A stretch of 64,000 bases of DNA from the NCBI GenBank assembly GCA_902764415.1, contig CACWVU010000004.1, positions 15,758 through 79,757 on the forward strand, in the 5' to 3' direction. This DNA is from an uncultured bacterium. Lineage in GTDB: Bacteria; Verrucomicrobiota; Kiritimatiellia; RFP12; UBA1067. This document shows, piece after piece, positions 9,140-39,950 of the stretch; positions within the stretch are counted from its first letter, which is position 1; every line of letters starts with the position of its first letter. The notes under the pieces were generated by a model. The model was not told the DNA's origin. It saw nothing but the letters and a program-made list of their open reading frames with translations, and did not search any database. The position numbers and the translations under genes were made by a program.

Positions 9140-10369
9140 TTATGACCAAAGCACAGACATTGGCACTGCCAACATCCCATTACCAAACGAAAGTGTTTCA
9201 CTTCCCGAATATAGGACGATGCCGACAAATCGGCGTCCCTTGGTCAAATGCTCGCGAAACCACTCAAGATGCCGGAAGTCATTCTTTCCGACTCCAGCAC
9301 CGGCTTTGACCTCAACACCTGCAAGATTGCCGTCTGCATCCTCAACAATGAAGTCTATCTCACGTTTGTCAATGTCGCGGTACTGGTAAAGCGAGTATTC
9401 GCCAGATAAATCGATCTGTGCGGCAAGTTCCGTAAATACAAGCGTCTCGACAATCTTGCCAGACTTGTCAGCATCGAGTTCAATGTCCTTCGTGCGCCAA
9501 TTCAGCATAGCCGCCATGAGACCGGTATCGCACATGTACCATTTCGGACGTTTGCCGATACGCGCATAGTCCGACCCTGTCCAGGCCTCCACGCTTTCGC
9601 AAAGATAGTAGCGTTCCAGCACCCCAAGATACTCCCTGTAGGTGGAACGGGAAAGTCCACACGCAGACTGAAGCGCGTTGGAATCGATATACTTCGACGA
9701 CCATGCGGCAACTGCTTTAAGCAAGTCATAGAGCGCACGCTGCCGACGTATGCGCTCATCATCCTTGATGTCTTTGGAGAACAACGACTTGACATAGTCC
9801 TGAAACCATTCGCGTCTATCCTCAGGCGACAACCTAACCACTTCGGGATATCCTCCGCGAAAGGCAAGGTCTAATACTGTTCTCTTGTCGCAGTCAGGAT
9901 ATAGGCTGTCATAGTCGTTCGCAAAGAGCCTGTCAAGAAACGTTGGCTCCACGCCCTGAATCTCGCCCTGCGCAAACGTTCTCATGCGTATGTTCTTTAC
10001 GCGTCCGGCAAGGCTCTCGTCTGTTTCCGGTGCAGAATATATGTCGGACGAACCCGTTATGACATATTGCCCCGGACGACGATTCCTGTCGACTACCAAC
10101 TTGATCTCCGAAAGGAGCTCCGGAGCCTTTTGCACCTCATCTATGACCATCGGCCCGTCACCGTCATAGCGTACAAAACTCTGCGGGTCAAGAAGCGCGG
10201 CCTCTCGAAGCCGCTTGGAATCAAGACTGCGGATTTCCACCTTGCCATCAAAGAACATTTCAAGCAATGTCGATTTGCCGCATTGCCTTGCACCAGATAT
10301 AATGACTACACGACGCGTTTTAAGCGCCTTGCCAAGAACACGAAAATTCCACCTTGTGACATTGTCCAT
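9140..10369 (-). CDS. AAA-family ATPase with a DUF4143 C-terminal domain
   Basis: Walker A GARQCGKSTL. Paralogue of 29394-30725. Lies in the AT-richer DNA between the 61-bp direct repeats. Confidence 0.75.
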   Translation of the reverse strand: MDNVTRWNFRVLGKALKTRRVVIISGARQCGKSTLLEMFFDGKVEIRSLDSKRLREAALLDPQSFVRYDGDGPMVIDEVQKAPELLSEIKLVVDRNRRPGQYVITGSSDIYSAPETDESLAGRVKNIRMRTFAQGEIQGVEPTFLDRLFANDYDSLYPDCDKRTVLDLAFRGGYPEVVRLSPEDRREWFQDYVKSLFSKDIKDDERIRRQRALYDLLKAVAAWSSKYIDSNALQSACGLSRSTYREYLGVLERYYLCESVEAWTGSDYARIGKRPKWYMCDTGLMAAMLNWRTKDIELDADKSGKIVETLVFTELAAQIDLSGEYSLYQYRDIDKREIDFIVEDADGNLAGVEVKAGAGVGKNDFRHLEWFREHLTKGRRFVGIVLYSGSETLSFGNGMLAVPMSVLWS

Positions 10370-10640: not shown

Positions 10641-11408
10641 CTATGGTTTTAAATGCTTTTGCTTCATTAGGTCACGCACCGAAGAATATCCTACTGATGA
10701 AACAACCAAGTGATCGATGAGTGGAATGCCAAGGTCTTTGGAGGTCGCCATTAGCTGACGCGTGGTCTCGATGTCGCCTTCGGATGGCGTGTGGTCACCG
10801 TTTGGATGGTTGTGGGCCACCACTATGCAGTGGGCATCCCATTTTATCGCTTCGCGAAAAACATCCCTCGGCATGACATAAGACGAGTTGGCCTGTCCAC
10901 GCGCAACCTTGATGGGCTCACAGATGGGAATTCGTTTGGCCGTCAAAGGCAGAACCCAGAAATTCTCAAGCACATCTCCTTCTTGCGCGATGAACTTGAA
11001 CACTTCGTATGCATCTTCGGCAGTTGCAACACGCATCTTCTTCAAATCGTCCGGTTTCACGCGAAGACGGCGATACCCGAGTTCAAATGCCGCTGCCAGT
11101 TCCAGCGCCTTGACCTTCCCAATGCCCTTGATAGGCGCTTCTGGGTTCTTTTTGTTGTAGTCAGATATCTTTGCGACAAGAGTACGCCAATCGGCGGTTA
11201 CAAGGTCTTGAATGCACCCAAACGCCCGGATGAGCCGTCTTGCGAGTTCCAAGACGTCACAGCCAGGCGCACCTGTCTTGAGCAGTATCGCAAGAACGGC
11301 CTCATCCTTTAGGTCGTGCGGACTCGCCGCACGCTCCATCTGCTCGCGCGGCAGGAGTTCGCTTGAAACTCCGTTCTTCTTGAAATTGCTTTCCCGCTTC
11401 TTGACCAT
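10641..11408 (-). CDS. radC: RadC-like JAB/MPN domain protein
   Basis: HNHPNGDHTPSEGD JAMM motif and an N-terminal helix-hairpin-helix region. Last gene of the island operon. Confidence 0.8.
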   Translation of the reverse strand: MVKKRESNFKKNGVSSELLPREQMERAASPHDLKDEAVLAILLKTGAPGCDVLELARRLIRAFGCIQDLVTADWRTLVAKISDYNKKNPEAPIKGIGKVKALELAAAFELGYRRLRVKPDDLKKMRVATAEDAYEVFKFIAQEGDVLENFWVLPLTAKRIPICEPIKVARGQANSSYVMPRDVFREAIKWDAHCIVVAHNHPNGDHTPSEGDIETTRQLMATSKDLGIPLIDHLVVSSVGYSSVRDLMKQKHLKP

Positions 11409-11409
11409 A

Positions 11410-12138
11410 TTATACCTCCTCCATCGGCATGGCTATAAAATCATTAAGTTCTTTCCGCAAAATCCTCCAGCGCGGCAATCGCCTGTCCATAAGCTCTACA
11501 AACGCTCTGGAGTGGTTCGACACCTCGAAATGCGTCAGCTCATGTACGACCACATACTCAATGCATCTTGCGGGCACTCTTCCAAGCGCGGCGTTGAAAA
11601 CGATCTTGCCGCGTTTCTTAAGACAACTCGCCCACCGAGTCTTCATCTTCCTAATTTCGGTTTCGGGAAGAGCAAGCTTCAACTTCCTGCACCATCCTTT
11701 CATCTTGCCCGCCAGAGACTCACCCAACATCGCCTTCTGCCATGATTCGACGATCCTCTCCTTATGCCCTCGTGAAGCGCCCTCCCGCACGTACAACGAC
11801 AACTTGTTGCCGCCCCACGTCACCTTTTCCGTCGCATAACGATCTTCCACGACAACCAATAGTTTATACCGGCGGCCAAGACAATAAATGCTCTCTCCGC
11901 TCACATACTCCCGACGCGTCTGGCGAGGCTGGGAAAGAACAGTCTTCCGCTGGTCGCGTATCCAGCCAATCTTGGATGCAAGAAAACTTCTCAAATCGCG
12001 GTCGGAAAGATCATCTGGCGCAGAGACATGCACCCTGGCATCCGGCGGATAGATGGCAAGATGCGTGTGCTTGATCTTCTTTCGCTCGACTTCAATCTGT
12101 ATTCCGGCAACTATCATAGCATCACATCCACGGTTCAT
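11410..12138 (-). CDS. YgjP-like metal-dependent hydrolase (DUF45 / M48 family)
   Basis: HELTHFEVSNHS zinc-binding motif. Sits in the classic position downstream of hsdR. Confidence 0.75.
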   Translation of the reverse strand: MNRGCDAMIVAGIQIEVERKKIKHTHLAIYPPDARVHVSAPDDLSDRDLRSFLASKIGWIRDQRKTVLSQPRQTRREYVSGESIYCLGRRYKLLVVVEDRYATEKVTWGGNKLSLYVREGASRGHKERIVESWQKAMLGESLAGKMKGWCRKLKLALPETEIRKMKTRWASCLKKRGKIVFNAALGRVPARCIEYVVVHELTHFEVSNHSRAFVELMDRRLPRWRILRKELNDFIAMPMEEV

Positions 12139-15100
12139 CGCTCATATAGGAATCTGCATCGAACTCACCTTGGTGTTCGACGATCTGATATACGGTAAGG
12201 GGATTGAAGTCCGTGCCCTGAAGCGCATCTTCTATCGCCATCTCGACCTTTCGCCGGCGTATGGCGTTTCTTCGAAAGCCGGGCTTGGCGCTTGCTCCGA
12301 CAGCCTCGAAGACCTTGAGCGCAAGGTCAGCATCGCCGCCCAGGTTGTCGCACAGGCTACGCTTGGCCTCGGTGTCCAGGCGCGGATCTTCAACTGCCGT
12401 GTCGCCTTTCAGTTCCTTGCCCATCTTTGCGATTTCCGCAAGTAGCTTTCTGTATTCAATCTTCTCCTTGCGGTAGTCTTCGAGAAGCCTGTTAATGCGC
12501 TCAGAGAACTTGCGGTACTCGGCAGGGTTGGTCTCTTTCTTTCTGAAGATGTAGCGTCTGACGTTTGCCACAAGCGTTTCCGCGACGCCGCGTTCGCCCC
12601 CGACCTCGGACTCCACGTCGGGATCGACCGACCCTCCATCGTCTTTGTCGATTTTTATCAGATCGAGAAACGAAAGATCCTCGAGGTCGGCGAGTTTCAA
12701 CGCATGCTTGGCCGTGACGAAATTGTCGAGAAGCGATCGCATCTCGGCATCGTAGAGCTTGAGGTCCACGAAATCGCCGGCTCGCTTCATGATCGCCTCG
12801 CGCAGCATGTCGTAGTTGCGCACCTTCTCCTTTAGCGCAGCCGCCTCGGCGGGGGAGTAGCCGGCCTCGTCAGTTTCCTGCGCGATGTCGCTCCAAGCCC
12901 TTACCGCGGCGATGCAGGCCTGGTAGAAGTCTTCCCGCAGCTGCGAATCCCCGGGTCTCTGCGCTTCACCGCCAGGTTCTGCGCCTGGGCGCGTGCCGTT
13001 CTGCGCTTCGTCGCGTGCGATGAAGTAATCGCAATACTCATCGATCCCCTTCGGCGGCAGTACCGGTTCCGAAAGAATATCGCACCGTTCAAGAGCTGCT
13101 TCAAGCGCCTTGCGACCTTCTTCAAGCCGTCCCTTGAGGAGCCCCTCTACATCTTCTTTCTCAAAGTTCTTGAACGCGCCGTTGGTGTAGTCTTTGACTG
13201 CGCCCCTTATGCTCTCAAAGAGATGTTTGTAGTCGATGATGTAGCCATAGCGCTTTTTCTCCCCGTTTAGCCGGTTGACGCGGCAGATGGCCTGGAAAAG
13301 GTTGTGGTCTTCCATCTTCTTGTCGATGTAGAGATAGGTTGCGGGCGGCGCGTCAAAGCCGGTCAGCAGCTTGTCAACCACAATCAGCAGCTTCATCTTC
13401 GCCGGATGCTCGACAAACTCCTTCTTCGCCCATTCTTCGAAATCTTCGGGCGATTTTTCTCCGCGCATAGCAAGGTTCATCCTGTGCTTGTACTCGGCTT
13501 CGGTAAGCTGCTCGCCGGTGAACGCCTCGGCAAGACTTGGCTCGTCGCCACCGTAGCTCGTCACTACGGCGCAATGATCCTTCAGCGGCGAGAGAGCGTC
13601 GCTGAACATCGCCCAAAACCGATATGCCTGATACACCGACTCGCAAACCAGCATCGCATTGCCCCATCCGTCGCGGAGCGCTGGCTTGAGCCCCATGTCC
13701 ATGCAGATGTCGGTGACAATACGCTGTACGCGCTCTTTCGCCGAAAAGAGATTCTGCATCCGCGCCCAGCGCTTCTTCAGCTCTTCCTTCTTGGCGGGAA
13801 GAAGGTTCTTGGTCTTATGTTCGAAAATCGAGTCGAAAGTCACGTCTTCGGCGAGGTTCTGCTCGATGTCGCGCGCCTCATAGCGCAAATCAAGCACGAC
13901 GCCGTCCTCTACCGCCTCATCGAATTTGTAGGTGTGGATGAACGGCCCGAAATTGGCATAGCTCGTAAGCACTCCCTTCTCGCTTTTGAGAAGAGGCGTT
14001 CCCGTAAAGCCGATCAGCATTACATCTGGCCCCATGATCTTCTTCATCGCCAAGTTCATCACCCCGCCTTGCGTGCGGTGGCACTCGTCAACGAAAACGA
14101 AGATATCGCCCTTCGCCTTGAAGCCCAGCGGCAATTTCTCGGCAAGCTCCTTCAAATAAACCGCAGCCGACCTTTCACCCCGCAATCTGCGCTCGCGAGC
14201 ATCAAGCTTCTCCTTGGACCCATTCGCGCCAAATTTGTGAATCAGTGTTGTAATAAGCCGTTCACGCGATTTGTTCAACGTTGCTATCAAGTCGGCGCCA
14301 CTTGTCGCGCGATATGGCTTCTCGCCGGCCTCCTTGAAGCCGTTTGTAATCTGCTTGTCGAGTTCGTCGCGGTCGGTGATTATCACCACCCGCGCATCGG
14401 GGCGATGTTCCTTGATCCACTGCGCAAGCCAAACCATCGTAAGCGACTTGCCGGAGCCCTGCGAATGCCAGATGATGCCCGACTCCTTGCGCATGATGCG
14501 AGGCTTCGCCGCCTCCAGCGCAAAGAACTGTGCAGGTCGCATAACCTTCTTCACACCGCCGTCAAAGACGATGCCGTCGTGTATAAAGGCCAGCAACCGC
14601 TCCTTGTCAAGCATCTGTGCAAACGAGCGGTCAACGAGCGGCTTTATCTCCGCTTTGCTCCACCTCGGCACGGCGCACGGATTGCCACAAGGCTCTTTCC
14701 ACTTCAGCCAGTGTTTCTCAGGGGTGAGCGTCGTCGCATACTTCAGACCCTCAGATTCGTTGCCCGCCATCAGCAGCTGCGCAGCGGCAAAAAACGCCGG
14801 TATCTCCCCCTCTTGCTGATTGCGGTAGTTCTGGCGAATTCCCTCGGCCACGCTCACATTCGCCTTCTTTAGCTCGATCACGCAAAGGGCAATGCCATTC
14901 ACCCAGATCACGACATCAGGCCGGCGATGGCCGTTTGCCGCGACCTGCCGCCTTACAGTCACCTCCTCGGCTATGGAGAAGTTGTTTTCGAGCGGGTGTT
15001 GCCAGTCGATGAAATAAACCTGTTTCATCGGCTTCCCGGGCTCGGTCGCAATCGACATCGGGTATCTGAGGGTCAAATACACTTCTTTGTTTACGTTGTA

Positions 15101-15376
15101 GAGGTCGGCCTGGCCCGGGCATGCCATGCGCTTCGCGAGCTCGGCTATTGCACGGTCGGCACATGCGGGCTCTAGCTTTTGCTTGCAGACAAGGAACTCC
15201 TTCAGCGCCTGGCGGTCAAGGCAAGAATTCTCTCTTTCCGAAAGATCGCCCAGATAATCATAGCCAAGCTTTGTTCGCAATAGTCCAATGATGCGATCTT
15301 GAACCGCTCGTTCGGAGGCAACCACAGCGCCCGCGCCGTGGAACGAAACCTCGCCTTCAACCTTATCGTTTTGCAT
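12122..15376 (-). CDS. hsdR: type I restriction enzyme R subunit
   Basis: HsdR_N-like N-terminus, SF2 helicase motifs (GSGKSLT, FVDECHRTQGG), 1084 aa. Confidence 0.9.
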   Translation of the reverse strand: MQNDKVEGEVSFHGAGAVVASERAVQDRIIGLLRTKLGYDYLGDLSERENSCLDRQALKEFLVCKQKLEPACADRAIAELAKRMACPGQADLYNVNKEVYLTLRYPMSIATEPGKPMKQVYFIDWQHPLENNFSIAEEVTVRRQVAANGHRRPDVVIWVNGIALCVIELKKANVSVAEGIRQNYRNQQEGEIPAFFAAAQLLMAGNESEGLKYATTLTPEKHWLKWKEPCGNPCAVPRWSKAEIKPLVDRSFAQMLDKERLLAFIHDGIVFDGGVKKVMRPAQFFALEAAKPRIMRKESGIIWHSQGSGKSLTMVWLAQWIKEHRPDARVVIITDRDELDKQITNGFKEAGEKPYRATSGADLIATLNKSRERLITTLIHKFGANGSKEKLDARERRLRGERSAAVYLKELAEKLPLGFKAKGDIFVFVDECHRTQGGVMNLAMKKIMGPDVMLIGFTGTPLLKSEKGVLTSYANFGPFIHTYKFDEAVEDGVVLDLRYEARDIEQNLAEDVTFDSIFEHKTKNLLPAKKEELKKRWARMQNLFSAKERVQRIVTDICMDMGLKPALRDGWGNAMLVCESVYQAYRFWAMFSDALSPLKDHCAVVTSYGGDEPSLAEAFTGEQLTEAEYKHRMNLAMRGEKSPEDFEEWAKKEFVEHPAKMKLLIVVDKLLTGFDAPPATYLYIDKKMEDHNLFQAICRVNRLNGEKKRYGYIIDYKHLFESIRGAVKDYTNGAFKNFEKEDVEGLLKGRLEEGRKALEAALERCDILSEPVLPPKGIDEYCDYFIARDEAQNGTRPGAEPGGEAQRPGDSQLREDFYQACIAAVRAWSDIAQETDEAGYSPAEAAALKEKVRNYDMLREAIMKRAGDFVDLKLYDAEMRSLLDNFVTAKHALKLADLEDLSFLDLIKIDKDDGGSVDPDVESEVGGERGVAETLVANVRRYIFRKKETNPAEYRKFSERINRLLEDYRKEKIEYRKLLAEIAKMGKELKGDTAVEDPRLDTEAKRSLCDNLGGDADLALKVFEAVGASAKPGFRRNAIRRRKVEMAIEDALQGTDFNPLTVYQIVEHQGEFDADSYMSDEPWM
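12955..13022. repeat. GC-rich 22-24-bp tandem repeat (GTTCTGCGCYTSGSCGCGTGC x3), in-frame inside hsdR
   Basis: Same repeat family as 16015-16112 and 16276-16322. Encodes ...GAEPGGEAQRPGDSQ... Confidence 0.7.
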
Positions 15377-15389: not shown

Positions 15390-16700
15390 TTAACTAACTG
15401 CTTGCGCCACCGCCTCGTCGATGCCGCTCAACACTGCTCCTTTGTAATCGATTTCAACCGCGCCATCATCGGCAATCAGCTGGGCAATGCGGTTTAAAAC
15501 CTGCGCCTCGTGGCGCGTCATTGCTTTCTCGCCCGGCACATACGGCCAGCCAATCGGCGCGAGCATCAGCAAATTGCCCGCCGCACACGTTTCAAATAGC
15601 TTGCCGCCCGGCTTGTAGAGCGGCGAAAAGCCCTTGTTCTGCAATGTTATCACGCGGTGCCCCGCCTCGAAGGCGCGGCGGGCGATCTCGCGCTCGCCAT
15701 GGCTGATGCATGGGCTAAGCAACACCGCGCCCTGCGCCGCCGCGCGCATGGCGGCGGTCGCCTTTTCCTCAAATTCAGGTGTTGATTTTTCCACCATCGG
15801 CTTGCCGGCGGAATCGCGGCAAATTTGCCAACCACTCGGCAACCGCCGCCGCTTGTAGGCGAAGAAAGAGCGCGAGCATTGAATCTGGCAAATAATCGGC
15901 CGCGTCAAAAGAAAGTGGTTGCCAATCGCCATAAAATGCCCCTTCGCCGGGCCGCGCCAGGGGGGAATACCGGCTCGCTCGCGAGCCGACGCAGAACCAG
16001 CCTCGCCCCAACCGGGGTTCTGCGCTTGGGCGCGCGTGCTGTCCTGCGCTTCGCCGCGCGCACGGTTCTGCGCTTCGCCGCACGTGGGGTCCTGCGCTTC
16101 GCCGCGCGCGGCGAAGTCAACCTCAATATCGCGTGCCACCTTGAAAAGTTCTAGGCAAGCCCGCTTGATGCCCAAGCGCCGCGGGTTGGCACGAATGTAG
16201 GCAATCATCTTTTCAAGCTGCCCCGCGCGAAATAGTATCAAATCAACATACCCAGGCGCCCATAACCCTACCGCCATGTTCTGCGCTTGGGCGCGTGCGT
16301 GTCCTGCGCTTGGGCGCGTGTTCCAAAGTTCCCCCGCGCGGCTTGTACTTTTCGACTTGAAGCTGCCGATGATATTGCCAAGTTTTTTCTTCTGCTGCTC
16401 CTTCACGAAGATGATGCCATGAAAATGATCGGGCATCAGCTGGCTTTCAATCACTTCAACCCCTGGCCACTGCTGAGGAATCTCGCGCCAGCATTGCTCG
16501 ACAATCAACCCGATCTCGCTTGGCTCAACCCGCCACTCCTCGCCCTCGCCGACAAGCCGCCCCAAAGCCGGCCGCGACCGATCGGCCAGCGTGATCGTGA
16601 TCATGTAAATGCAGCGCGAGGAATAGTCCCAGTTGAAGCACCGCCGTCCCATGTGGTGCTTCACCTCCTGCCTCACTTCGCTCTTATGTTTAGCGGTCAT
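15390..16700 (-). CDS. RayT/IS200-like HUH Y1 transposase domain fused to an unknown C-terminal domain, interrupted by in-frame repeats
   Basis: HuH motif MPDHFHGIIF plus LWAPGYVDLILF...YIRANPRRLG (the RayT 'W..F.DH.I...Y..NP..GL' pattern). Unknown C-terminal domain of about 200 aa. Repeat-encoded RAQAQN/GEAQD stretches. Confidence 0.6.
   Translation of the reverse strand: MTAKHKSEVRQEVKHHMGRRCFNWDYSSRCIYMITITLADRSRPALGRLVGEGEEWRVEPSEIGLIVEQCWREIPQQWPGVEVIESQLMPDHFHGIIFVKEQQKKKLGNIIGSFKSKSTSRAGELWNTRPSAGHARAQAQNMAVGLWAPGYVDLILFRAGQLEKMIAYIRANPRRLGIKRACLELFKVARDIEVDFAARGEAQDPTCGEAQNRARGEAQDSTRAQAQNPGWGEAGSASARERAGIPPWRGPAKGHFMAIGNHFLLTRPIICQIQCSRSFFAYKRRRLPSGWQICRDSAGKPMVEKSTPEFEEKATAAMRAAAQGAVLLSPCISHGEREIARRAFEAGHRVITLQNKGFSPLYKPGGKLFETCAAGNLLMLAPIGWPYVPGEKAMTRHEAQVLNRIAQLIADDGAVEIDYKGAVLSGIDEAVAQAVS
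16015..16112. repeat. GC-rich 24-bp tandem repeat x4 inside the RayT-like gene
   Basis: GGTTCTGCGCTTGGGCGCGCGTGC-type units, in frame. Confidence 0.75.
16276..16322. repeat. GC-rich 24-bp tandem repeat x2 inside the RayT-like gene (between the HuH and Tyr motifs)
   Basis: ATGTTCTGCGCTTGGGCGCGTGCGTGTCCTGCGCTTGGGCGCGTG. Confidence 0.75.
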
Positions 16701-16717
16701 GGATTGCCTCGAAACTT

Positions 16718-19700
16718 TTATGACTGAGTTGTGTTTACCTGAATCTTGCCATCAGCTTTTTCGCTAGTGGAAGACACAATACCTTTCCCTTTTAGAAACT
16801 CGATGAAAGCCCCGACACCTTCCCATTTTGAAATCTGGGGATGACACCCGAGTTCTCCAAGTCTATTATATGGCTCTGACATTCTCCTTAACCGATTGCG
16901 TATTTCATCGGTGTCGCCACCAAGATGCTGGATGATCTTACACTGCAATGTCGCCAAACTTAGCTTCCCAACAACCGCATCGAGTATCGCCTCATCAAAC
17001 TGTGTGTAGTTTCCAACATTGATGTAAGACGCGACACCAATAATTAAATCTTCATTGCCGAGTACAACATCTTTAAGCGTGTTGGCAACCATCGGTATGT
17101 TACGACGCGAAATCTTGTCAGGCGCAAAAAGTTTCTTGACATCATCCCTGTTTGCCATACCGTCAGAATACTCATTGCAAAACTCATTTATAAACATTGC
17201 CGCATAAACAATGTGAGAATCATTGCCTATATCACGAAGAGCCTGATACAGCTCATTTGAATACTTAATACGATTACCTTTCGCAAGATACTCAATTCGC
17301 TTGGGCGTCGCATTTGCTCCTGAATATCTTGATATAACGCCTTTACTCATACCTGACAAGAGGCCATTCATTGCGTCATCTGACAATTGCACTTCTTCTG
17401 CCAATCGCTTTGCCAAATTCTCATCTTCCTCCCACGCTATACCGCGCGAATTCTTCTGAGATAAAACCGAATAACAATCTATGTCATTTACATACTCCCA
17501 GAACAAGGTCTCGTCATCTGTGTTTCTATTCCACACCTCAGCTGCGTTATTCCATGTTGGCACAAGCCACTTGAGTCTTATACAAAGAGCAAGCGCCCTA
17601 TCCGACACGAGCTTCTTTGCGTCATCAATTCTACCTTGTTTTGATTGTTTCTCCACGAAACGAGTTATGTCATCCTCGCCCAAATCATCACGGTTGAAAA
17701 CAAAAGCAATATTCTCAATAGAATCTTCCTGCTGCGACTCCAATTGCAAATACACATTGTCAAGATACGTTTTAAACTCTCTGTCCACATAGTCAACAAG
17801 TTGCTTGATTCCACAACTATTAATCACCGAATAGTTCTTCTTCTCAAAATCGCTCACATCAATCCCTTTGGCGTTCAATATCTCCTTCAGCATATTTGCA
17901 TCAAGTAAATATGCGCATTCAGATATGACAACCTCAATAAATCCAGTCTCTTGCGCCAATTTAAAGTCAAGCACTTCGAACTTCAAGTCAAACTGCCTCA
18001 CAAAAGCTGTCATAGTCTCTACATCGTTAATCCCATTGTCTCGCAGCAACTGCGGCATGGCCGCTGTCTGCTCCACATACTCTTTTACAATGTTAGACGG
18101 AACAACAGCTTTCTCCTGTCGCATTGTCCACGCGACATACAGCCCCAATTGCTTTTCAATAAACTCGCGTGGCCAGCCGTCTCCCGAAACTGAAGTCTCT
18201 ATCAACTCTGCCATGTAGTTCGGAGTTGCCGACATGATGCAGTCAAACAACTTTCTTGCATCGTCTCCCTTTGCCACTTCCGTAAGATATCCATCTACAA
18301 ACTCATAACTTCTCAAATCCTTTTTGGAAATTAGTTGCCAAAATTCCTTTGCCTTCTCACTCTCGGGGCTTGTCAAAAGTTCGCGGCAAATGTCATAGTT
18401 CGGCATAGATGGAGTCGAGAAATAATGCAGCTCAAGACTTTCAATTAGCGCCCTAGGATTTTTGAGTTTGGTTTTCCAATCAGCATCATCGCCTCGCGTA
18501 ACACCAACTTCAAAAAGGTAATCCTGAATAGAATTAACTCCGTCAACCTCATGGAAGATCGAAATGTTGTAATAATACTTTTCGTTGAGATAGCCATTCT
18601 TCAACAAGAGAATCACAAGTTCTGCATCTTGCCGATCTTCGCTGCTTTCCTGAATGATTACCTTAATCTCATCATCTTTCAAGACGCCTTCTACCATTAA
18701 TTCCTGAATCGTTTTATGCTTGATAGTTAGGCGACGTTCCTTTAGGACCTGAATTTCCTGTTTGATCTTTTCAATACGCCCATTTTGATGCGACTCAATT
18801 CGTTTGACGTGTTCATCGTATGTACAGTTAGGGTCTGTCTTCTTTTCGATATCCGCCCATTTTATCGGGCGATTTCCATACGAACCTCCTGAAAATCCAT
18901 TTCTGCGCAACACCTCAAACCAATTATCATAGTAGAGTATCGCCGAGGCAAACCTTTGTTCTCCCTGAATATGCACATAGGCGTTGTGAGGATCAAACTC
19001 TCGCATCAATGTAGCATAATACAACAATTGCAATTGTTGAATGTCCGTCAACTTTTCCCCATTGATGCAATCAATCTCATGTTTCAAATTGCTAATCTTA
19101 TCATCAATATCTTTTGCCAACCTTTCCTGGGCTTCTTTTTTCTTCTCAAGGAACTTCCACATCATACCTCTTTCATCATGCATGAGGGCAAAATCCTTGG
19201 GAAAGAAGTTTTTGAACACAACAAGTCCCAAGAGTTCTTGCTCAGAGGTATAATCGATTACTTGCTCTCTGTAAGTGTAATATTCATTGCAAATGTTCTT
19301 GAGAAGCCGCATATCCGAGATGTACGGCGAAACCACCTTTACAAATCTTACCAATGTCTCATCTGGCTTAGTGTCGCTCCAGTCATTGAGAAACGCCAAC
19401 AACTCCGTGCGTGAATTAGATGCATTTATTCGCGGAATGATCGGAATAACAAAATCAAAGAATTTCACTTTGCTCTTTTCATCTTCAAACAGTTCTTCCC
19501 GAAGCGCATATATAAATCTTATAGGTTTTTTCTTGACACTTATCTGATGGGAATTGTTCAGAAGTAGATTTAGCTCCCGCAACTTCGTGAAGATACATAA
19601 ATCATTAAATCTATCGATGTCCTCAAAAACAACTATAGAACATTTTGAGGCAGAAAAGAAATTAATGATTGTCCTTATGTTACGGTTAAGCATAGAACAT

Positions 19701-20380
19701 GACGGGATATCCGGCATCTCAATTTCCAAGCCAGCAAGCCCAGCGCCACTTACATCAACACGTTTAATGCCTGTATCCTTTAGCCAGTAAACCACTTTAC
19801 GCATAGCCATTAGAGAAACAGCAACAACCTCAAACAATGAAAACCAAAATATAACACATGCGTAATTTGCGACCCAATCATGTATCGCCGGTGTTACATA
19901 CTTCACAAAAACATCTGGTTGCATAATGCCAATGATACCCCCACCTATCAAAAGCACTACGGTAATTATTTTCCAACTCCACCATGCCGCATCCTTATGC
20001 AGGTGAACTATTTGCTGCAAAATACTTAATTCTAATTTGTGCTCAAACTCAGTTTTTTCCTCTTCTGTCTTGCCAATTCTATGTTGCTCAAGGAATAAGG
20101 CCAAAGAAACCCACAGAACATTCTTCTTTCCCTTGAAATAAGTCCTCAAGAATGAACTTTTCCCAGCCCCATACAATCCAGTTACCGCAATATTTTTGAT
20201 AGCATCGTTCTTTGACGACAGCGCAAAATCCATCGCCTCAGAGTACGTCTTGATATCTTCCGCGTTCTCTGTCGGTGTTAGCGATTGGAACGGCGATTCT
20301 ATCGAATGCCAAATATTTGTCGGCAGCATCAATTCCAAGACTTTCATAAGACATTTCTTCATGGCATATCCTCCCGTCAA
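16718..20380 (-). CDS. KAP-family P-loop NTPase (1220 aa) with TM segments inserted in the NTPase domain and a large uncharacterised C-terminal region
   Basis: Walker A GLYGAGKSSFL, inserted hydrophobic helices (WWSWKIITVVLLIGGGIIGIM...), Walker B VVFEDIDRF. 4-nt overlap with the upstream gene. Confidence 0.8.
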   Translation of the reverse strand: MTGGYAMKKCLMKVLELMLPTNIWHSIESPFQSLTPTENAEDIKTYSEAMDFALSSKNDAIKNIAVTGLYGAGKSSFLRTYFKGKKNVLWVSLALFLEQHRIGKTEEEKTEFEHKLELSILQQIVHLHKDAAWWSWKIITVVLLIGGGIIGIMQPDVFVKYVTPAIHDWVANYACVIFWFSLFEVVAVSLMAMRKVVYWLKDTGIKRVDVSGAGLAGLEIEMPDIPSCSMLNRNIRTIINFFSASKCSIVVFEDIDRFNDLCIFTKLRELNLLLNNSHQISVKKKPIRFIYALREELFEDEKSKVKFFDFVIPIIPRINASNSRTELLAFLNDWSDTKPDETLVRFVKVVSPYISDMRLLKNICNEYYTYREQVIDYTSEQELLGLVVFKNFFPKDFALMHDERGMMWKFLEKKKEAQERLAKDIDDKISNLKHEIDCINGEKLTDIQQLQLLYYATLMREFDPHNAYVHIQGEQRFASAILYYDNWFEVLRRNGFSGGSYGNRPIKWADIEKKTDPNCTYDEHVKRIESHQNGRIEKIKQEIQVLKERRLTIKHKTIQELMVEGVLKDDEIKVIIQESSEDRQDAELVILLLKNGYLNEKYYYNISIFHEVDGVNSIQDYLFEVGVTRGDDADWKTKLKNPRALIESLELHYFSTPSMPNYDICRELLTSPESEKAKEFWQLISKKDLRSYEFVDGYLTEVAKGDDARKLFDCIMSATPNYMAELIETSVSGDGWPREFIEKQLGLYVAWTMRQEKAVVPSNIVKEYVEQTAAMPQLLRDNGINDVETMTAFVRQFDLKFEVLDFKLAQETGFIEVVISECAYLLDANMLKEILNAKGIDVSDFEKKNYSVINSCGIKQLVDYVDREFKTYLDNVYLQLESQQEDSIENIAFVFNRDDLGEDDITRFVEKQSKQGRIDDAKKLVSDRALALCIRLKWLVPTWNNAAEVWNRNTDDETLFWEYVNDIDCYSVLSQKNSRGIAWEEDENLAKRLAEEVQLSDDAMNGLLSGMSKGVISRYSGANATPKRIEYLAKGNRIKYSNELYQALRDIGNDSHIVYAAMFINEFCNEYSDGMANRDDVKKLFAPDKISRRNIPMVANTLKDVVLGNEDLIIGVASYINVGNYTQFDEAILDAVVGKLSLATLQCKIIQHLGGDTDEIRNRLRRMSEPYNRLGELGCHPQISKWEGVGAFIEFLKGKGIVSSTSEKADGKIQVNTTQS

Positions 20381-21585
20381 TACTCGCCCATCTCTCGTTT
20401 AATCGGCTGATGTTTGCCATATTCATAATAGCAGGCCAACGTAAGAAGCATTTTAATCTCACTATCAGGCATATCGCGCTGGTCGATCTTGACCCACTTG
20501 CATACAAAATCTTTTGCAATCATATCTATGTCTGGTGTCGCCCAATCACGCTTGTCTGGATTCCCAAGATATTCAAATATTTTTCGCAAAGTATAATTCA
20601 ATTTTCGAGACTCTTCCACCTCTATTTCTGTCAGATGATTTACTATGCTAAAGTATTCAGCGTAGTCAAGCCTCGAGAAAGCCTTGCAAAGCGCGGGTAG
20701 GGAATCAACAATCTCTTGCCTGAACATCTTTACACGCGATTGATTTACTTCAAGCGTACACGGGCATTCCAAGAGATCAATAAGTTGCTGTGTCTCGTAA
20801 ACAGACCAATCATCACATCGCTTGTCAAACTCATCCCGCATAAACTTCAGTTGATCCAATGGTGGTAACTGACTGTCAACTTTGACCATTTTCCAGGCCT
20901 TAGTGCTCTCCTTTATTTTCTTGTTCACTTTATCAAGCACTAAACCGAGGGACTCATACCGTGACTTCAGATAATCTTTTAAAACCGAGAACCGAACACG
21001 TAAAGTCTTCCAATCACGTTCTTTGACAGACGAATATATCATAACACCGACATAATCATCTGGCTCGTATGCGTATCTCTTCAGCGCGCGCTCGACAATG
21101 AAGGGGCAATACTGAACCTCTCCTTCAAGAAGAATGCCTTGTGATCTTGTAACCATACCCGGATGGGCAAATACCAAAGAACGAAAGTATTGAAAAAATG
21201 CATCATCAGTAGGACAACCTTCTTCGGGAATGCTTAACGGCTCGCCCATGCAGACATTTTTGAAGAACTTACAACTATCTGGATGCCCCTTGTCAAAAAT
21301 TGTTGCGCTTAAACCAAACTCCTCGCGCAGGCGCTCTATTGAGTCCTTAACTACGCTTGCAAACATCATGAATGTCATCAACCCTGTCGGGGCATCCATA
21401 CCCTTGGGAGTCTCCTGATGAGTGTTTATCCATGCCGTCGCATGTCGCAACCGATCAAGCACCGCACAAACCTGCGAATGTTTGGCTTTTAACTCCTCGT
21501 CATAGGAAAATACATTTGTGCTATTCAATGTGCCGTACATTGAATCACAAATACGCTCATCGAGTAATGGTTTAAAGGAGTTCAT
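20377..21585 (-). CDS. hypothetical protein (402 aa), translationally coupled to the KAP NTPase
   Basis: Non-GC-artefact amino-acid composition. ATGA overlap with the KAP gene. No motif recognised. Confidence 0.6.
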   Translation of the reverse strand: MNSFKPLLDERICDSMYGTLNSTNVFSYDEELKAKHSQVCAVLDRLRHATAWINTHQETPKGMDAPTGLMTFMMFASVVKDSIERLREEFGLSATIFDKGHPDSCKFFKNVCMGEPLSIPEEGCPTDDAFFQYFRSLVFAHPGMVTRSQGILLEGEVQYCPFIVERALKRYAYEPDDYVGVMIYSSVKERDWKTLRVRFSVLKDYLKSRYESLGLVLDKVNKKIKESTKAWKMVKVDSQLPPLDQLKFMRDEFDKRCDDWSVYETQQLIDLLECPCTLEVNQSRVKMFRQEIVDSLPALCKAFSRLDYAEYFSIVNHLTEIEVEESRKLNYTLRKIFEYLGNPDKRDWATPDIDMIAKDFVCKWVKIDQRDMPDSEIKMLLTLACYYEYGKHQPIKREMGEY

Positions 21586-21615
21586 AGTTAGTCGGTTCCA
21601 TAGCGTAGTTCAAGA

Positions 21616-22623
21616 TTATTCATAACAAGCTGGCCGATGTCCTCGCGCCCAGACCCAGTTATTAGAATGGTCTGCTCCAATGGTGTTTACAATGGTAATA
21701 GTACTAGACTCAATTTGATGCTTTGATAGGAACTTATAGATCGTTTTTACGTCATCCTCCGTAATAACACAACCCCCAATAACACGTATCAGGTCAAAGC
21801 CTGCGCTTGTTAGAGAAAATGTATGCACCCACAGTACGCCTCCGGTTATTCTAAGCCTAGACACACCATCACTTAATCTAATCGTCAACTCTTCTGATCC
21901 TTCAAGTGGATTCATCTTTGCCGCCGACTGAAGGTTACTCATCAAGCCAAGTTCTTGAAATCGTACGATGTCGTCATACGAACCAAATATTGGCCTGTTA
22001 TCATAGCTGACAATCAATTCGCCGCCAATCGCTCCTCTACACAGATTGGCAAAACACATGCAATCGTTCTTTGACAGGTTCTTAACAACATCTAACGTTC
22101 GCATCGAGATTCGATTAGGCTGCACGACCTCTTCTTTCAAGAGCCCTGCCCACCACTGACGAAGTTCATTATCGTCAATCATTTCCGCCTCTCGACGCCA
22201 ACGATTGAAAAAAGTCTGTGATATCGGTTCATCAGAAATTTCTTCGGATGGGACTGTAGATATCTGTCGTATTGCCTCTTCCATGGCTGCCTGTAAGCGA
22301 CGTGCGTCTGACATATGGTTTAGTGTATGCAAAGCATCATAGGCATCCACAACCGTAACAGGTGCAGGGCAATCCAGCAATTGACCTTCTCTGTAAACTT
22401 TTATACCGTTTCTTACGTCAGTACAGTCTTTTTCTGTCTGCGCTTGAATCAACGCTACAGCCCGTTCGTTCTTAGCGATCCATTTGCCAAACAAAGCTTT
22501 TAGCAACTTGCCTAACCCTTTATTGGACGACGACACAACATCGGCTGTCGCCTGAACCAATGGCGTAGCATCAGCACTCACATCTGCATTAACATTTCCT
22601 TGCACTGGAATTGTCGCTCTCAT
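21616..22623 (-). CDS. hypothetical protein (335 aa); possible DUF2806 / Abi-like
   Basis: Segment ...FFNRWRREAEMIDDNELRQWWAGLLKEEVVQPNRISMRTLDVVKNL... resembles the DUF2806 family as I recall it, with low certainty. 3-nt gap after hsdS. Confidence 0.55.
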   Translation of the reverse strand: MRATIPVQGNVNADVSADATPLVQATADVVSSSNKGLGKLLKALFGKWIAKNERAVALIQAQTEKDCTDVRNGIKVYREGQLLDCPAPVTVVDAYDALHTLNHMSDARRLQAAMEEAIRQISTVPSEEISDEPISQTFFNRWRREAEMIDDNELRQWWAGLLKEEVVQPNRISMRTLDVVKNLSKNDCMCFANLCRGAIGGELIVSYDNRPIFGSYDDIVRFQELGLMSNLQSAAKMNPLEGSEELTIRLSDGVSRLRITGGVLWVHTFSLTSAGFDLIRVIGGCVITEDDVKTIYKFLSKHQIESSTITIVNTIGADHSNNWVWARGHRPACYE

Positions 22624-22626
22624 GTC

Positions 22627-23997
22627 TTATTCTCCTTTCAACCTTGTCTTACCCGTCAGCAGTTCCTGCATCATGCCGGATTTGATGCGCTCGTATTTCG
22701 CACAGTCGGCCTCAAGCGCCGCAATCTCCGCATCCATGTCTGATACCACCGCCCCAATCGCCTTCTGCTCGGCAAGAGTGGGGAAAGCAAACGCCAACCC
22801 TTCAATATCCTTTGCATTCAAATTGTTGATTGCCGACCCAGTAAGGATATCATCCAACTGCCGCCGGTAACTCTGTGATTGAAGCAGATATCCCACAAAG
22901 CATGAATCAACACTTTTTACACATCGAAATACAGCCATAAAAGCACCAAAAGTAGCTACCTCCGCTTTATGCCATACTGCCGCCTTACCAACAAGGTTTC
23001 TACTGCCGTTTGCGGCACAAATGAGTATATCCCCTTCAGTCAACTGCTGACAACCTGCTATACACTCATTCATCACATACAAAACATCATGGCAAATGAT
23101 CTGGTTGTCTTGAATATTATTAGCTCTAAGTAGCACTGTGGCGTTTGGCATTAACGTAAGTGATGATTGCTCTGGCCTGAAACTAACACCTCTAATCGAT
23201 TCACCGATCCCTCCCAGCCGCTTCACCTCCCAATCCACGGGAATGGGGCCAAGTTCAGTCTGCTTGAACTCGGCGCGTGCTGCGCCAAACCCCGGCAGGC
23301 GGGTTTTGCCGGTGAGGAGCTGCTGCATTGCACCAGTCTTGATGTTACGCTTTTTCTCGATGAGTTTCCCCAACGCCGAAATCAACTCATCGACATCCGA
23401 CAACGCCCTCGCGATCCTCCGCTGCTCGGCGAGAGGGGGAAGAGGGATTTCACTTCGCGAAAGATCGCCTATACTTATACTTGCTTGGTTAATAGCTATT
23501 TTAGCCAGCTCGCGTGCCTTGCTCCTCATGGGGGATGATGAAAGAGCATAATACAAATAGTTTGCATTGGCACTTTCGTTACACCGCAAGAGCAGAAGAT
23601 TCATCCCATGATATAACAGCTCCTTGCCATCATATAATGCAACATTCCCAATGTATGGCAAACTATTTATGTGGCTAAACAGGATATCACCGTTGCTCAA
23701 CATATAATCAGCGGGCGGCGCATCTTTTACATAACCAACGCGAGAATAATTCACAACGCCTTTTGAGATTGTCTCAATTCGAGAAATCTTATAAGAGCCA
23801 CGATTACACACCGAATAAGTAAATCCATTTTTTATTCGTGTGCAACATTCCCCCAGCCGCTTCACCTCCCAATCCACGGGAATGGGGCCGAGTTCGGTCA
23901 TCTTGAACTCTGCGCTCTCAGCGGTCTCTGCGTGAGGTTTTTCCCCGCCCGTAGCATTAGAACCGAGTTCAGCCTTTCTTGATTTCGGCGGCTTCAT
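22627..23997 (-). CDS. hsdS: type I restriction-modification specificity subunit
   Basis: Two target-recognition domains, each preceded by the conserved repeat ...TELGPIPVDWEVKRLGE... Confidence 0.9.
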   Translation of the reverse strand: MKPPKSRKAELGSNATGGEKPHAETAESAEFKMTELGPIPVDWEVKRLGECCTRIKNGFTYSVCNRGSYKISRIETISKGVVNYSRVGYVKDAPPADYMLSNGDILFSHINSLPYIGNVALYDGKELLYHGMNLLLLRCNESANANYLYYALSSSPMRSKARELAKIAINQASISIGDLSRSEIPLPPLAEQRRIARALSDVDELISALGKLIEKKRNIKTGAMQQLLTGKTRLPGFGAARAEFKQTELGPIPVDWEVKRLGGIGESIRGVSFRPEQSSLTLMPNATVLLRANNIQDNQIICHDVLYVMNECIAGCQQLTEGDILICAANGSRNLVGKAAVWHKAEVATFGAFMAVFRCVKSVDSCFVGYLLQSQSYRRQLDDILTGSAINNLNAKDIEGLAFAFPTLAEQKAIGAVVSDMDAEIAALEADCAKYERIKSGMMQELLTGKTRLKGE

Positions 23998-25076
23998 TCA
24001 CCCTCCTTTCCGCGCTCGCCCTTCTCCTTCTTGATCTCTTCTTCGAGCGCGAGGAGGTAGCGGTCGTAGTCGCTCATGAAGAGCCGGTCTTGCACGATGC
24101 GGTATTTCTCGAACTCGTTTTCAGCATGTTCTTCCGCAATTGCGGCGGTCACATTCTCGACCTGTTCAATCGTAATCGGTCCGTCCCAAATCGCCACAAA
24201 CTTGTCGAGGCGCCTCTCCCACGCCTCCATCGTCATAGGGATATGCCGAAGCGCGGCATTCTCCGCAAATTCCAGGTAGGCATTGACAAGCCTCTCAAGC
24301 ATTCCAAGTTCATCTTCGGTCAAGTAGTTCTTGGCAATGACTACGTCGCTCTTGCGAATCTTTCCATTGGGCGAAGCCGCCCAGCTACTCAGCCCCATGT
24401 GCTCCTTCGCCGCGTCGGCACGCGAAAAGATGATTTGGGCTGCCGTAAGGCCGTTGACAGCTTGGTGCATCTTGTTCTGGACTGTCGCAAAGAATCTCCG
24501 TGTCCGAAGTGCCTTGCTGTCATAGTCGATGGCAGTCGCGTAGATGTCCGTCACCTTCTGATAGAACTTACGCTCGCTCAGGCGTATTTCTCGAATATCT
24601 TCAAGGAGACGTTCAAAATATTGATTTGAAATCGGAGAACCATCCTTCATTCGAGGCTTGTCGAGAACATAGCCACGAATCGTGTACTGTGAAACGATCT
24701 GGTTGGCCCACTTTCTGAACTGCACCGCCCGCTCGTTATCTATCTTGAAGCCAAGAGCGATTATAACTTGCAAGTTGTAGTGGTTTACACGGTAGTTCTT
24801 GCCGTTGTCGGCAACTATTAAAATTTCTTTAATAGTTGACGCCTTATCAAGCTCGGCGTCTTCGTACAATTTCCGCAAATGGTAGGCGATGTTCGGCACC
24901 TCCACGCCATACACCGCCGCGAGCATTTTCTGGCTCATCCAGATATTCTCGTCTTCGTAGCGTATTTCATACCGCTCGTCGACAGCACCGACAGAGGCAA
25001 TGTAAGTAATGAACTGGGCCGCGCTCGACTTCTGAGGCTCCATGTTGTCCCAATTGCTCTTTTTCTTCTTTGCCAT
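23994..25076 (-). CDS. RhuM-family protein (often embedded in type I RM loci)
   Basis: N-terminal ...IWMSQKMLAAVYGVEVPNIAYHLRKLYEDAEL... is typical of RhuM. 4-nt overlap with hsdS. Confidence 0.65.
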   Translation of the reverse strand: MAKKKKSNWDNMEPQKSSAAQFITYIASVGAVDERYEIRYEDENIWMSQKMLAAVYGVEVPNIAYHLRKLYEDAELDKASTIKEILIVADNGKNYRVNHYNLQVIIALGFKIDNERAVQFRKWANQIVSQYTIRGYVLDKPRMKDGSPISNQYFERLLEDIREIRLSERKFYQKVTDIYATAIDYDSKALRTRRFFATVQNKMHQAVNGLTAAQIIFSRADAAKEHMGLSSWAASPNGKIRKSDVVIAKNYLTEDELGMLERLVNAYLEFAENAALRHIPMTMEAWERRLDKFVAIWDGPITIEQVENVTAAIAEEHAENEFEKYRIVQDRLFMSDYDRYLLALEEEIKKEKGERGKEGE

Positions 25077-29144: not shown

Positions 29145-29160
29145 AATTAATTTTGCGCGT

Positions 29161-29169
29161 ATTATAGCA
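29161..29169 (-). promoter_or_regulatory. extended -10 TGCTATAATACGCG, candidate promoter of the 11-gene island operon
   Basis: About 16 nt upstream of the ATG of the MTase-TRD gene. No SD. Confidence 0.45.
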
Positions 29170-29393
29170 TATTGGCCGCACTGTGTCAAATCGGTATCTT
29201 AATACCAAATACAATGGTAGTAAAATCCTTTGCTTGCCCGTCTCAAACATACTCAATATGATATGGATTAGGTGGCCCATCAGTAACACGCGAAAGTCGG
29301 TCCAAGACCCGTGCCCTTCCGTGGAAAGGGCATGCCTAAGCCTCTATACAATACTGCCGCGAGACGGCAAAATATCACGCAAAAAATGGCGGA

Positions 29394-39288: not shown

Positions 39289-39313
39289 ATGGCTGTTTGT
39301 CCTTTTCGAGGTG

Positions 39314-39337
39314 TCTAGGATCCTAGGTTTCTAGGAG
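39314..39337. promoter_or_regulatory. CTAG-rich palindromic motif TCTAGGATCCTAGGTTTCTAGGAG in the rnfB-rnfA intergenic region
   Basis: Shares about 22 bp with 48046-48076. CTAG is otherwise nearly absent from the window. Confidence 0.4.
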
Positions 39338-39346
39338 ACTGGGATT

Positions 39347-39934
39347 TTAGTAGGGGAGCTTCACGAGGCCAGAGAAGCCCATGAACGCGAGGCTCAGGAG
39401 ACCGCCGGTGACGAGCGCGATCGCCATGCCGCGGAAGCACCGCGGCGGATCGGCGTAGGCGAGCTTCTCGCGGATGCCGGAGAAGATGACGAGCGCGAAG
39501 CCGAAGCCGACGGCGGCGGAGAAGGAGAAGAAGACCGACTCGAAGAAGCCTGTCCCCTGCTTGCAGTTGATCTCCGCCGCGCCGAGGACGGCGCAGTTGG
39601 TGGTGATGAGCGGCAGGAAGATGCCGAGCGCCGCGTGGAGCGGCGGCAGGAAGCGCTTCATCGCAATGTCGATGAACTGCACCAGCGAGGCGATCACCAG
39701 GATGAACGCGAGGGTGTGGATGTAGCCGAGGCCGAACGGCTGCAGCAGCCAGTGGTCGATCGCCCAGGCAACAGCCGAGGCCGCCGTCATCACGAACACC
39801 ACCGCGCCCGACATGCCCAGCGCGGTCTCGGTCTTCTTCGAGACCCCGAGGAAGGGGCAGCACCCAAGAAACCGGCTGAGGACGAAGTTGTTCACCAGCA
39901 CGGCGCCAACGAGAATCATCAGATAGTAGCTCAT
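39347..39934 (-). CDS. rnfA: Rnf complex subunit A
   Basis: Strong colinear similarity to E. coli RsxA (LVNNFVL..FLG.CPF.GVSKK..TA.GM..., ITTNCAVLG). Confidence 0.9.
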
Positions 39935-39941
39935 GGGCGGT

Positions 39942-39950
39942 ATTATACCA
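39942..39950 (-). promoter_or_regulatory. extended -10 TGGTATAAT, leaderless rnf operon promoter
   Basis: TGGTATAAT + ACCGCCC (7 nt) + ATG of rnfA. Confidence 0.55.

Follow-up and report, generated by a model that had tools for sequence, protein, structure and literature searches.

A predicted RayT-like HUH nuclease fused to a DprA-like domain, and the in-frame repeat elements of its gene and operon, in Kiritimatiellae

The Y1-DprA gene and the closest described systems

To our knowledge, no domesticated Y1 transposases are known apart from the RayT-type enzymes. These REP-associated tyrosine transposases (RAYTs; REP, repetitive extragenic palindromic sequence) are found mainly in Proteobacteria. 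The hallmark of RAYT/REPIN systems is a set of short GC-rich hairpin repeats that are linked physically to the gene and vary in concert with the protein lineage, and the abundance of such repeats is judged by a 16-mer frequency test (PMC5581495). Palindromic mobile DNA also occurs in-frame in protein-coding genes as the Rickettsia palindromic elements (RPEs), which lie at positions compatible with the protein fold, are ~150 bp long, occur throughout the genome in unrelated genes and have been described with no transposase beside them (PMC10969869). A third point of comparison is ShosA, whose DprA-type Rossmann domain binds single-stranded DNA (ssDNA; PMC11961720). Here we analyze a 64,000-nucleotide stretch of DNA from an uncultured bacterium of the Kiritimatiellia (hereafter the window), in which an intact open reading frame (ORF) of 436 amino acids (aa), which we call the Y1-DprA gene (15390..16700, minus strand), is predicted to encode a RayT-like Y1 HUH domain, a disordered repeat-bearing linker and a DprA-like domain.

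With the RAYTs (TnpA_REP; Escherichia coli YafM, PDB 4ER8), the predicted protein has in common the Y1 HUH fold, the HUH motif, the Tyr and the Y-x3-N arrangement. Likewise shared are purifying selection and a location often among housekeeping genes (Y1-DprA is a single copy in the window, with flanks 96-99% identical in strains), as well as short GC-rich, gene-associated hairpins that co-vary with the protein lineage. Unlike the RAYTs, however, Y1-DprA carries an extra DprA-like C-terminal domain of ~190 aa; its hairpins lie in-frame within ORFs, ORF tails and neighboring ORFs instead of extragenic flanks and carry neither a GTAG nor a CGTC tag; its elements, in the DNA available, stay within the gene and its operon and fall short of the high genome-wide abundance of RAYT repeats; and its hosts are bacteria of the Planctomycetes-Verrucomicrobia-Chlamydiae group, with one clade embedded in type I restriction-modification (R-M) operons. 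Relative to TnpA of the IS200/IS605 family of insertion sequences (IS608, ISDra2), whose HUH motif in ISDra2 can be aligned with that of Y1-DprA, the gene is a single copy in 64 kb instead of multicopy, is not bracketed by left-end and right-end hairpins, has no tnpB and encodes the extra DprA-like domain. The placement of palindromic repeats in-frame at structurally permissive ORF sites is shared with RPEs, but the units here are 22-29 nucleotides (nt) long, often tandem, restricted to one operon and located next to or inside the gene of a candidate mobilizing enzyme, with copies only in the Y1 gene, hsdR, hsdM, the YgjP gene and the hsdS tail and no dispersal into many unrelated genes. Finally, the DprA-type fold is common to DprA/Smf and to ShosA of the ShosTA system, but there is no detectable sequence similarity to them here; Y1-DprA lacks a SAM domain and a C-terminal winged helix, is fused to an HUH nuclease domain and has no ShosT-like partner gene beside it.

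We found no description in the literature of a Y1-DprA fusion, of an R-M-linked RayT or of such elements in Kiritimatiellae, nor one in the literature, PADLOC or PHROGs of the fusion, the intragenic elements or the association with hsdR, let alone of the fusion combined with in-frame hairpins in the gene and its neighbors. The reading toward which we lean, with slightly better than even confidence, is that Y1-DprA may be an active RayT-type ssDNA nuclease/transferase with a DprA-like ssDNA-binding domain, whose cognate hairpins would be turned over locally in such a way that only in-frame insertions in disordered loops survive.

An earlier note on this DNA, made from its letters, had described the ORF, the motifs MPDHFHGIIF (H92/H94), LWAPGYVDLILF and AYIRANPRRLG (Y168), and the tight spacing of the gene within a type I R-M operon, all of which we recovered: the stop codon of the upstream NTPase gene (16718-16720) lies 17 nt away, hsdR starts 13 nt downstream at 15376, and no terminator-like site was found on the minus strand between the NTPase gene, the Y1-DprA gene and hsdR. 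The Y1 HUH transposase-fold domain spans aa 22-188 (16137..16637, minus strand), and profile scores give the fold proposed in that note statistical support, with RayT as the nearest profile. The NCBIfam RayT model (REP_Tyr_transpos, NF047646) was the best-scoring curated family (46.5 bits, E 3.4e-12), and the NCBIfam transpos_IS200 model scored 18.7 bits for the window protein (18-22 bits including relatives, cutoff 55). Pfam PF01797 (Y1_Tnp) matched the window protein with 21.4 bits (E 2.9e-4), below its gathering threshold of 23 bits, and the relatives P0261 and P0221 exceeded that threshold with 25.4 and 26.2 bits. The Y1 domain of the window protein is split by a repeat insertion, and such in-frame hairpin insertions explain its sub-threshold scores on curated models.

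The residues expected of a Y1 enzyme are present and conserved. The HUH motif H92-F93-H94 (16419..16427, minus strand) aligned with the HUH of ISDra2 TnpA when the family profile was used, and the catalytic Tyr168 and Asn172 (16185..16199, minus strand) form the Y-x3-N arrangement in the C-terminal helix of the domain, which is predicted at residues 161-170 and 172-181; H92, H94, Y168 and N172 are all invariant in 69 homologues. An AlphaFold2 model built with these 69 homologues had a mean predicted local distance difference test score (pLDDT) of 77.7, with both domains confident, only residues 1-22 and 200-236 disordered, and the characteristic alpha/beta fold of Y1 enzymes present. Given these profile scores, the model, the HUH alignment and the invariant residues, the protein is best described as a predicted HUH nuclease of the RayT-like type with a DprA-like module fused to it.

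The C-terminal domain, which the earlier note had called unrelated, comprises ~190 aa (aa 245-436; 15393..15968, minus strand) and has a DprA/ShosA-like extended Rossmann fold in what is a new sequence family. No Pfam match, including DNA_processg_A (PF02481), was obtained for it at E <= 0.01, and a 21-sequence profile of the domain found no DprA chain among PDB sequences at E <= 10; the relationship to DprA is at the level of the fold only. By analogy with DprA and ShosA the domain may hold ssDNA, and the fusion suggests how RayT-type enzymes may do so.

The fusion to a second domain proposed in the earlier note is borne out, and over 1,300 homologues have kept this two-domain architecture; those with source names come from Kiritimatiellae and Victivallales. 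A search with the C-terminal domain alone returned 883 clusters at 50% identity, mostly of 340-460-aa proteins in which the domain is C-terminal and the upstream part, where detectable, matches Y1_Tnp weakly. Homologues range from 385 to 527 aa, with all of the length variation located in five places. The loop between HUH and Tyr contributes 0-72 aa, the linker between the domains 0-98 aa, a beta-hairpin at residue 288 contributes 0-27 aa and the C-terminal tail 0-53 aa, the fifth place being a loop at residue 387.

Where the earlier note had left room for a pseudogene disrupted in related strains, the reading frame is uninterrupted in 79 of 79 full-length loci, and the ratio of nonsynonymous to synonymous substitution (dN/dS) against relatives is 0.10-0.22, with 0.045-0.08 for hsdR. 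These values, the intact frames and the single copy within the window indicate that the gene is maintained and functional and not a decaying insertion sequence. A decaying remnant of an IS200/IS605-type insertion sequence could be argued from the score just below the Pfam gathering threshold and from an ORF interrupted by repeat insertions; against this stand the 79 intact frames, the dN/dS, the invariant catalytic residues, the two confidently folded domains, the single copy and the lack of tnpB, which leave that explanation effectively refuted and with next to no weight. Phase variation by frameshifting repeat units was also considered and rejected, because none of the 79 loci is frameshifted.

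In-frame hairpin elements of the gene and its neighbors

On the sense strand, the full repeat unit reads (A)CTT-[CGCC|GGGC]-GCGCGC-[GGCG|GCCC]-AAG followed by the tail CGCAGRAC (written out as hairpin plus tail, GACTTCGCCGCGCGCGGCGAAGCGCAGAAC; a GGGC/GCCC variant also exists), and half units, consisting of the right arm and tail, follow the full unit in tandem. Repeat cluster A (16273..16331, minus strand; aa ~124-142, pLDDT ~55) occupies the HUH-Tyr loop and contains one imperfect hairpin unit and one half unit, where the earlier note had counted a single copy; because the two lie 23 nt apart they are read in different frames, as RPSAG and AQAQN. Repeat cluster B (16016..16116, minus strand; aa 195-229) occupies the interdomain linker, where pLDDT falls below 50 over residues 200-236, and begins with one full palindromic unit, whose 20 nt at 16097-16116 form a perfect palindrome, and continues with three half units spaced 24 nt apart. 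Three further copies are found in hsdR (12956..13025, minus strand), in the linker between T1R_D3-like and T1RH-like_C, as a near-palindrome CTTCATCGCACGCGACGAAG with its tail and two half units. Tandem Repeats Finder placed an array with a 24-bp period at 16016-16108 (3.9 copies) and one with a 23-bp period at 16277-16320 (1.9 copies). The core pattern had 12 matches in the window, where 1.69 would be expected, a count that 0 of 100 shuffles reached.

The core DNA (GGCGAAGCGCAGRAC or GCCCAAGCGCAGRAC) yields ARGEAQN, RTRPSAE and PHAAKRRT in its three sense frames, and all three frames are used: among 120 homologues, the peptide GEAQN occurred 184 times, RPSAE 56 times and AKRRT 5 times, giving 245 sense-frame against 8 antisense occurrences. 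Additionally, the two arms co-vary. Among 83 distinct units, a GGCG right arm was accompanied by the matching TTCGCC left arm in 19 and by the other type in 1, and a GCCC right arm by its matching left arm in 12 and by the other type in 1, for a total of 31 matched (19 CGCC/GGCG and 12 GGGC/GCCC) and 2 mismatched units. The repeats are thus elements of DNA and not of peptide sequence.

That the repeats are real and differ in copy number between strains, the latter a point that the earlier note had marked for checking, is evident from related loci. The HUH-Tyr loop is empty in loci L076 and L078 and filled in the window, L001, L077 and L004; when compared with the empty sites, cluster A is an insertion of 57 nt, and the insert in this loop begins at the left arm and finishes at the tail. 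Loci L004 and L005 encode an identical Y1 protein but differ by repeat insertions or deletions in hsdR (1147 vs 1133 aa) and by a 54-nt insertion in the YgjP gene. HsdR itself varies in length between 1021 and 1151 aa in homologues that are 79-100% identical, and its extra length in L004 (L004:11462-14905) consists of four separate clusters of the hairpin element; copies are likewise found along hsdR in L160 (L160:7001-10456). This length variation with element clusters indicates that the restriction subunit is being remodeled by insertions.

The distribution of the element is local. Outside the Y1-DprA gene and hsdR, the remaining 59 kb of the window, including ~40 kb of 68% GC host DNA, contained no copy within 2 mismatches; relatives have further copies in hsdM, the YgjP gene and the hsdS tail, and none in their low-GC cargo genes or flanking housekeeping genes. 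Copy density over 43 loci was 0.95 per kb inside the Y1 gene vs 0.15 outside, the latter being nearly all in hsdR or the YgjP gene. The core occurs in homologues at 51-97% identity while its positions shift. More distant homologues (38-56% identity) lack this core and have their own lineage-specific repeats at the same permissive loops (CGKYAAGPN, which could be hairpin-encoded, PAPAQICAGSCGS and LPVSAEAQN), and the repeated 12-mers of each distant gene almost never occur beyond the gene and a few hundred flanking nt. The element is absent from an HsdR lineage that has no Y1 gene in its operon. In GTDB, which was scanned with one genome for each of 185,579 species and a pattern of two adjacent cores (single dispersed units lie outside this pattern), 59 loci were found, 3 of them in Kiritimatiellia, and all three of these matches lay inside this gene beside hsdR. 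On the strength of these distributions the repeats appear to track the protein lineage and to stay local, and the genome-wide REP partner role that the earlier note had envisaged for the 24-bp repeat gives way, in the DNA available, to copies confined to the gene and its operon.

The other loci of the GTDB scan (Acidobacteria, Chloroflexi, Myxococcota and others) were set aside as unrelated tandem repeats. This by-catch included long arrays of short GC-rich repeats unrelated to the element (L032:6780-6960, L064:5250-5536 and L072:4900-5260), with units of the GCGCAAAGCGCAGA type in Chloroflexaceae and in Acidimicrobiia; in Dysgonamonadaceae, the unit measures 21 nt and lies at the end of a contig. 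A search of a 5.8-billion-protein collection with the repeat-derived peptide gave 19 candidates, none of which scored, probably because the query is of low complexity.

These patterns bear directly upon an enzyme-independent origin of the repeats, in which GC-rich low-complexity DNA would expand and contract by replication slippage or unequal recombination in tolerant disordered linkers while the protein acted on some other substrate. Tandem arrays, unit-sized differences between relatives, the restriction of arrays to low-pLDDT loops and tails, an unexceptional folding energy and the superficially similar tandem arrays of unrelated phyla all fit such a process. It does not explain, however, why the same 15-28-nt core is found at separate sites in four genes and three frames, why the arms co-vary, why the core is conserved across homologues at 51-97% identity despite changes of position, why lineage-specific repeat families track the protein, or why the element is confined to one operon in a 68% GC genome rich in other GC-rich DNA. 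We consider an origin of this kind decidedly unlikely.

The RayT-type reading that we favor would account for the elements as follows. The enzyme may recognize the GC-rich hairpin (CTT-SSSC-GC / GC-GSSS-AAG with the 3' tail CGCAGRAC) once the DNA is single-stranded, cut beside it and rejoin the strands, and such cutting and rejoining would duplicate, delete and locally re-insert units. The insertions that survive would be those that are in-frame within disordered loops and tails, in the enzyme's own gene and in the co-inherited neighbors (hsdR, hsdM, the YgjP gene and the hsdS tail), because these operons have almost no intergenic DNA. The analysis establishes the two folds, the conservation of the catalytic residues, purifying selection, the anatomy of the element with its use of three frames and its co-varying arms, the polymorphism between strains, the local confinement and the synteny; that this protein moves the elements, and by this mode, is what we infer.

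Several observations weigh against this reading. The curated RayT cutoff of 80 bits is missed by the window protein and by eight relatives, which score 35-51 bits. Comparison of filled with empty sites shows no target-site duplication and no readable cleavage site, and the genome-wide REP scatter of classical RAYT systems is not seen in the window or the loci examined, complete genomes not being among the DNA searched. The sense-strand bias could stem from selection on the encoded peptides, and it cannot be attributed to mechanism because every seemingly intergenic copy turned out to lie inside a C-terminal or N-terminal coding tail. Furthermore, the predicted ssDNA folding of the arrays was no better than that of dinucleotide shuffles on either strand (z -1.1 to +0.7), so the case for a hairpin rests on the co-variation of the arms.

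The family offers a compact natural test system for the cellular function of RayT enzymes and for REP movement, with the enzyme and all candidate substrates within a few kb and with filled and empty sites and copy-number differences already visible between strains. With the in-frame hairpin insertions, moreover, mobile DNA would clearly be reshaping the loops of proteins.

Association with hsdR and type I restriction-modification

The hsdR gene (12122..15376, minus strand) is the conserved partner of Y1-DprA in the clade at >=60% identity: all such homologues with enough flanking DNA lie directly upstream of hsdR, with a 13-nt gap or a 4-nt overlap. Homologues at 49-52% identity lie beside other type I R-M families, and a Y1-DprA protein that is only 36% identical fills the same slot before an HsdR at 64% identity. 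Across the wider family the association is looser. Among 62 metagenomic loci with >=400 nt of downstream sequence, hsdR starts within 350 nt in 19; type I R-M genes were present within ~2.5 kb in 5 of the remaining 43 and none were detected in the rest. In total, ~60% of family loci are not beside R-M genes, with distant members located among gyrA, glycosidase and transporter genes. Conversely, an abundant HsdR lineage at 58% identity has the order hsdM-hsdS-hsdR-YgjP, with hsdS abutting hsdR and no Y1 gene. In the clade of the window, the gene appears from this synteny to be a stable resident immediately upstream of hsdR. It shares the hsdS-hsdR interval with accessory genes that are found in type I R-M operons (RhuM, Fic, YgjP-like, RadC and KAP/Tmn NTPases), but differs from them in that more than half of its family lies outside R-M loci and that it is absent from PADLOC, and from variable R-M cargo in that it keeps a fixed place immediately 5' of hsdR across species. 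That the place is fixed in many Kiritimatiellae of gut and rumen makes a new accessory function in type I R-M conceivable.

Such a function could be that of an accessory effector, in line with the defense effector suggested in the earlier note, the DprA-like domain capturing incoming or replicative ssDNA (phage, conjugative or transforming) that is beyond HsdR restriction and the HUH domain nicking it, with the repeats as a side effect or a regulatory device. The protein would then be a functional partner of HsdR and translated together with it. The invariant position before hsdR in the >=60% identity clade, the neighboring R-M families at 49-52% identity and the slot shared by the 36%-identical protein speak for an effector, as do the similar synonymous divergence (dS) of the Y1 gene and hsdR in L012 (1.51 vs 1.52), a neighborhood that is a defense island with Tmn-like, RhuM/PDC-S05 and PDC-S01 genes, and the precedent of a DprA-like ssDNA binder in the ShosTA defense system. 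Other observations speak against an effector. R-M genes are nearby in only 5 of the 43 loci without an adjacent hsdR, several of which lie among gyrA, glycosidase and transporter genes, and the abundant 58%-identity HsdR lineage operates without the gene; the protein matched no model in PADLOC-DB v2 or PHROGs; the hairpin with its complete tail had 0 matches in 2.9 million viral contigs; and cognate-looking hairpins in the host's own genes are the pattern of a RayT/REP system and not of a foreign-DNA sensor. We regard an accessory effector as unlikely, though still credible.

With a similar degree of doubt, we entertain the possibility that the system is an unrecognized kind of REP/RAYT, in which an HUH enzyme with a DprA-like ssDNA clamp would act on hairpin substrates that reside in-frame in its own gene and spread only within its own operon, and which in the R-M-linked clade would be a genuine partner of HsdR. 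Spread confined to the operon could arise if the enzyme acts in cis on DNA that is single-stranded during transcription or replication of the operon. If this were so, the partnership with HsdR could arm type I restriction against ssDNA, or could remodel or regulate the operon.

The surrounding island and its cargo

The operon lies in an island of 22 kb (~9.1-31.5 kb) with a low GC content (39-60%) relative to its flanks (~64-73%) and to the genome (68%). In gene order it comprises an AAA_14/DUF4143 ATPase, an extra N6 methyltransferase (N6_Mtase, 27396-29189), HsdM (25088-27421), which the former gene overlaps from upstream, RhuM (23994-25076), HsdS (22627-23997), a DUF2806 protein, a 402-aa ORF, the YobI/Tmn-like NTPase, Y1-DprA, HsdR, a YgjP-like metallopeptidase (11410-12138), RadC (10641-11408) and a second AAA_14/DUF4143 ATPase, with all of the genes for which coordinates are given on the minus strand and with the YgjP-like and RadC genes forming the conserved 3' end of the operon. 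The YobI-like/Tmn-like P-loop NTPase (16718..20380, minus strand; 1220 aa, 39-43% GC), which is strain-variable cargo between hsdS and the Y1 gene, had been called a KAP NTPase in the earlier note, but its matches are to YobI-ATPase in Pfam (E 7e-83) and to the Tmn model in PADLOC (E 1.6e-66). Related operons are found at different chromosomal sites in other species, e.g., near smpB and tig-clpP-clpX in L012, which together with the low GC content indicates horizontal mobility of the island.

Strain comparison defines a block of exchangeable cargo at 16712-23286, where L001 is 96-99% identical to the window on both sides and contains another gene set (two KAP NTPases and others). Homology between the two is lost at a point 11 nt upstream of the Y1 ATG and is regained inside hsdS, which implies that part of hsdS was swapped as well. 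No att-like or hairpin site was found at the junction upstream of the Y1 ATG, where the only conserved feature is the ribosome-binding site CGAGGCAAYCC.

Whether Y1-DprA could itself be a recombinase that mobilizes the island, or that swaps cargo cassettes between hsdS and itself in the manner of an integron, can be weighed against this junction. The swap between L001 and the window with its breakpoint so near the gene, the different cargo in nearly every locus examined and the different chromosomal sites of the operon would fit such an activity. However, variable genes are also found in type I R-M loci that have no such enzyme, locus L159 lacks cargo between hsdS and Y1-DprA altogether, and many family members have neither cargo nor R-M context. 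Since the cargo junction shows only a ribosome-binding site, with no hairpin or repeat copy, we set the integron-like idea aside as very unlikely. The related suggestion of the earlier note, that the gene is the mobilizing element of the island, also finds no support, with the gene located mid-operon and no repeats or hairpins at the island ends.

Other features of the island were noted in passing. The two AAA_14/DUF4143 ATPase genes (9140-10369 and 29394-30725, both on the minus strand) bracket the low-GC island; the product of the former matches the PADLOC candidate system PDC-S01 (E 1.5e-128), and a gene of this type also ends the island in L001 and occurs in L014. The extra N6 methyltransferase has a C-terminal part resembling a specificity subunit (PADLOC mad2, MTase_I and Specificity_I matches) and occupies the same position in L004, L012, L014 and L156. 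The 402-aa ORF (20377-21585, minus strand) had no Pfam, PADLOC or PHROGs match and behaves as an independent cassette, because it is 92% identical at the nucleotide level in L004 within otherwise different cargo. Beyond the island, GC skew flips at ~38500-40000 (from negative on the left to positive on the right, with the cumulative minimum near 38-39 kb), which may be no more than an effect of gene orientation. A tRNA-Pro (TGG) at 48749-48825 on the minus strand is the sole RNA gene that was detected in the window, Rfam having returned nothing but a tRNA.

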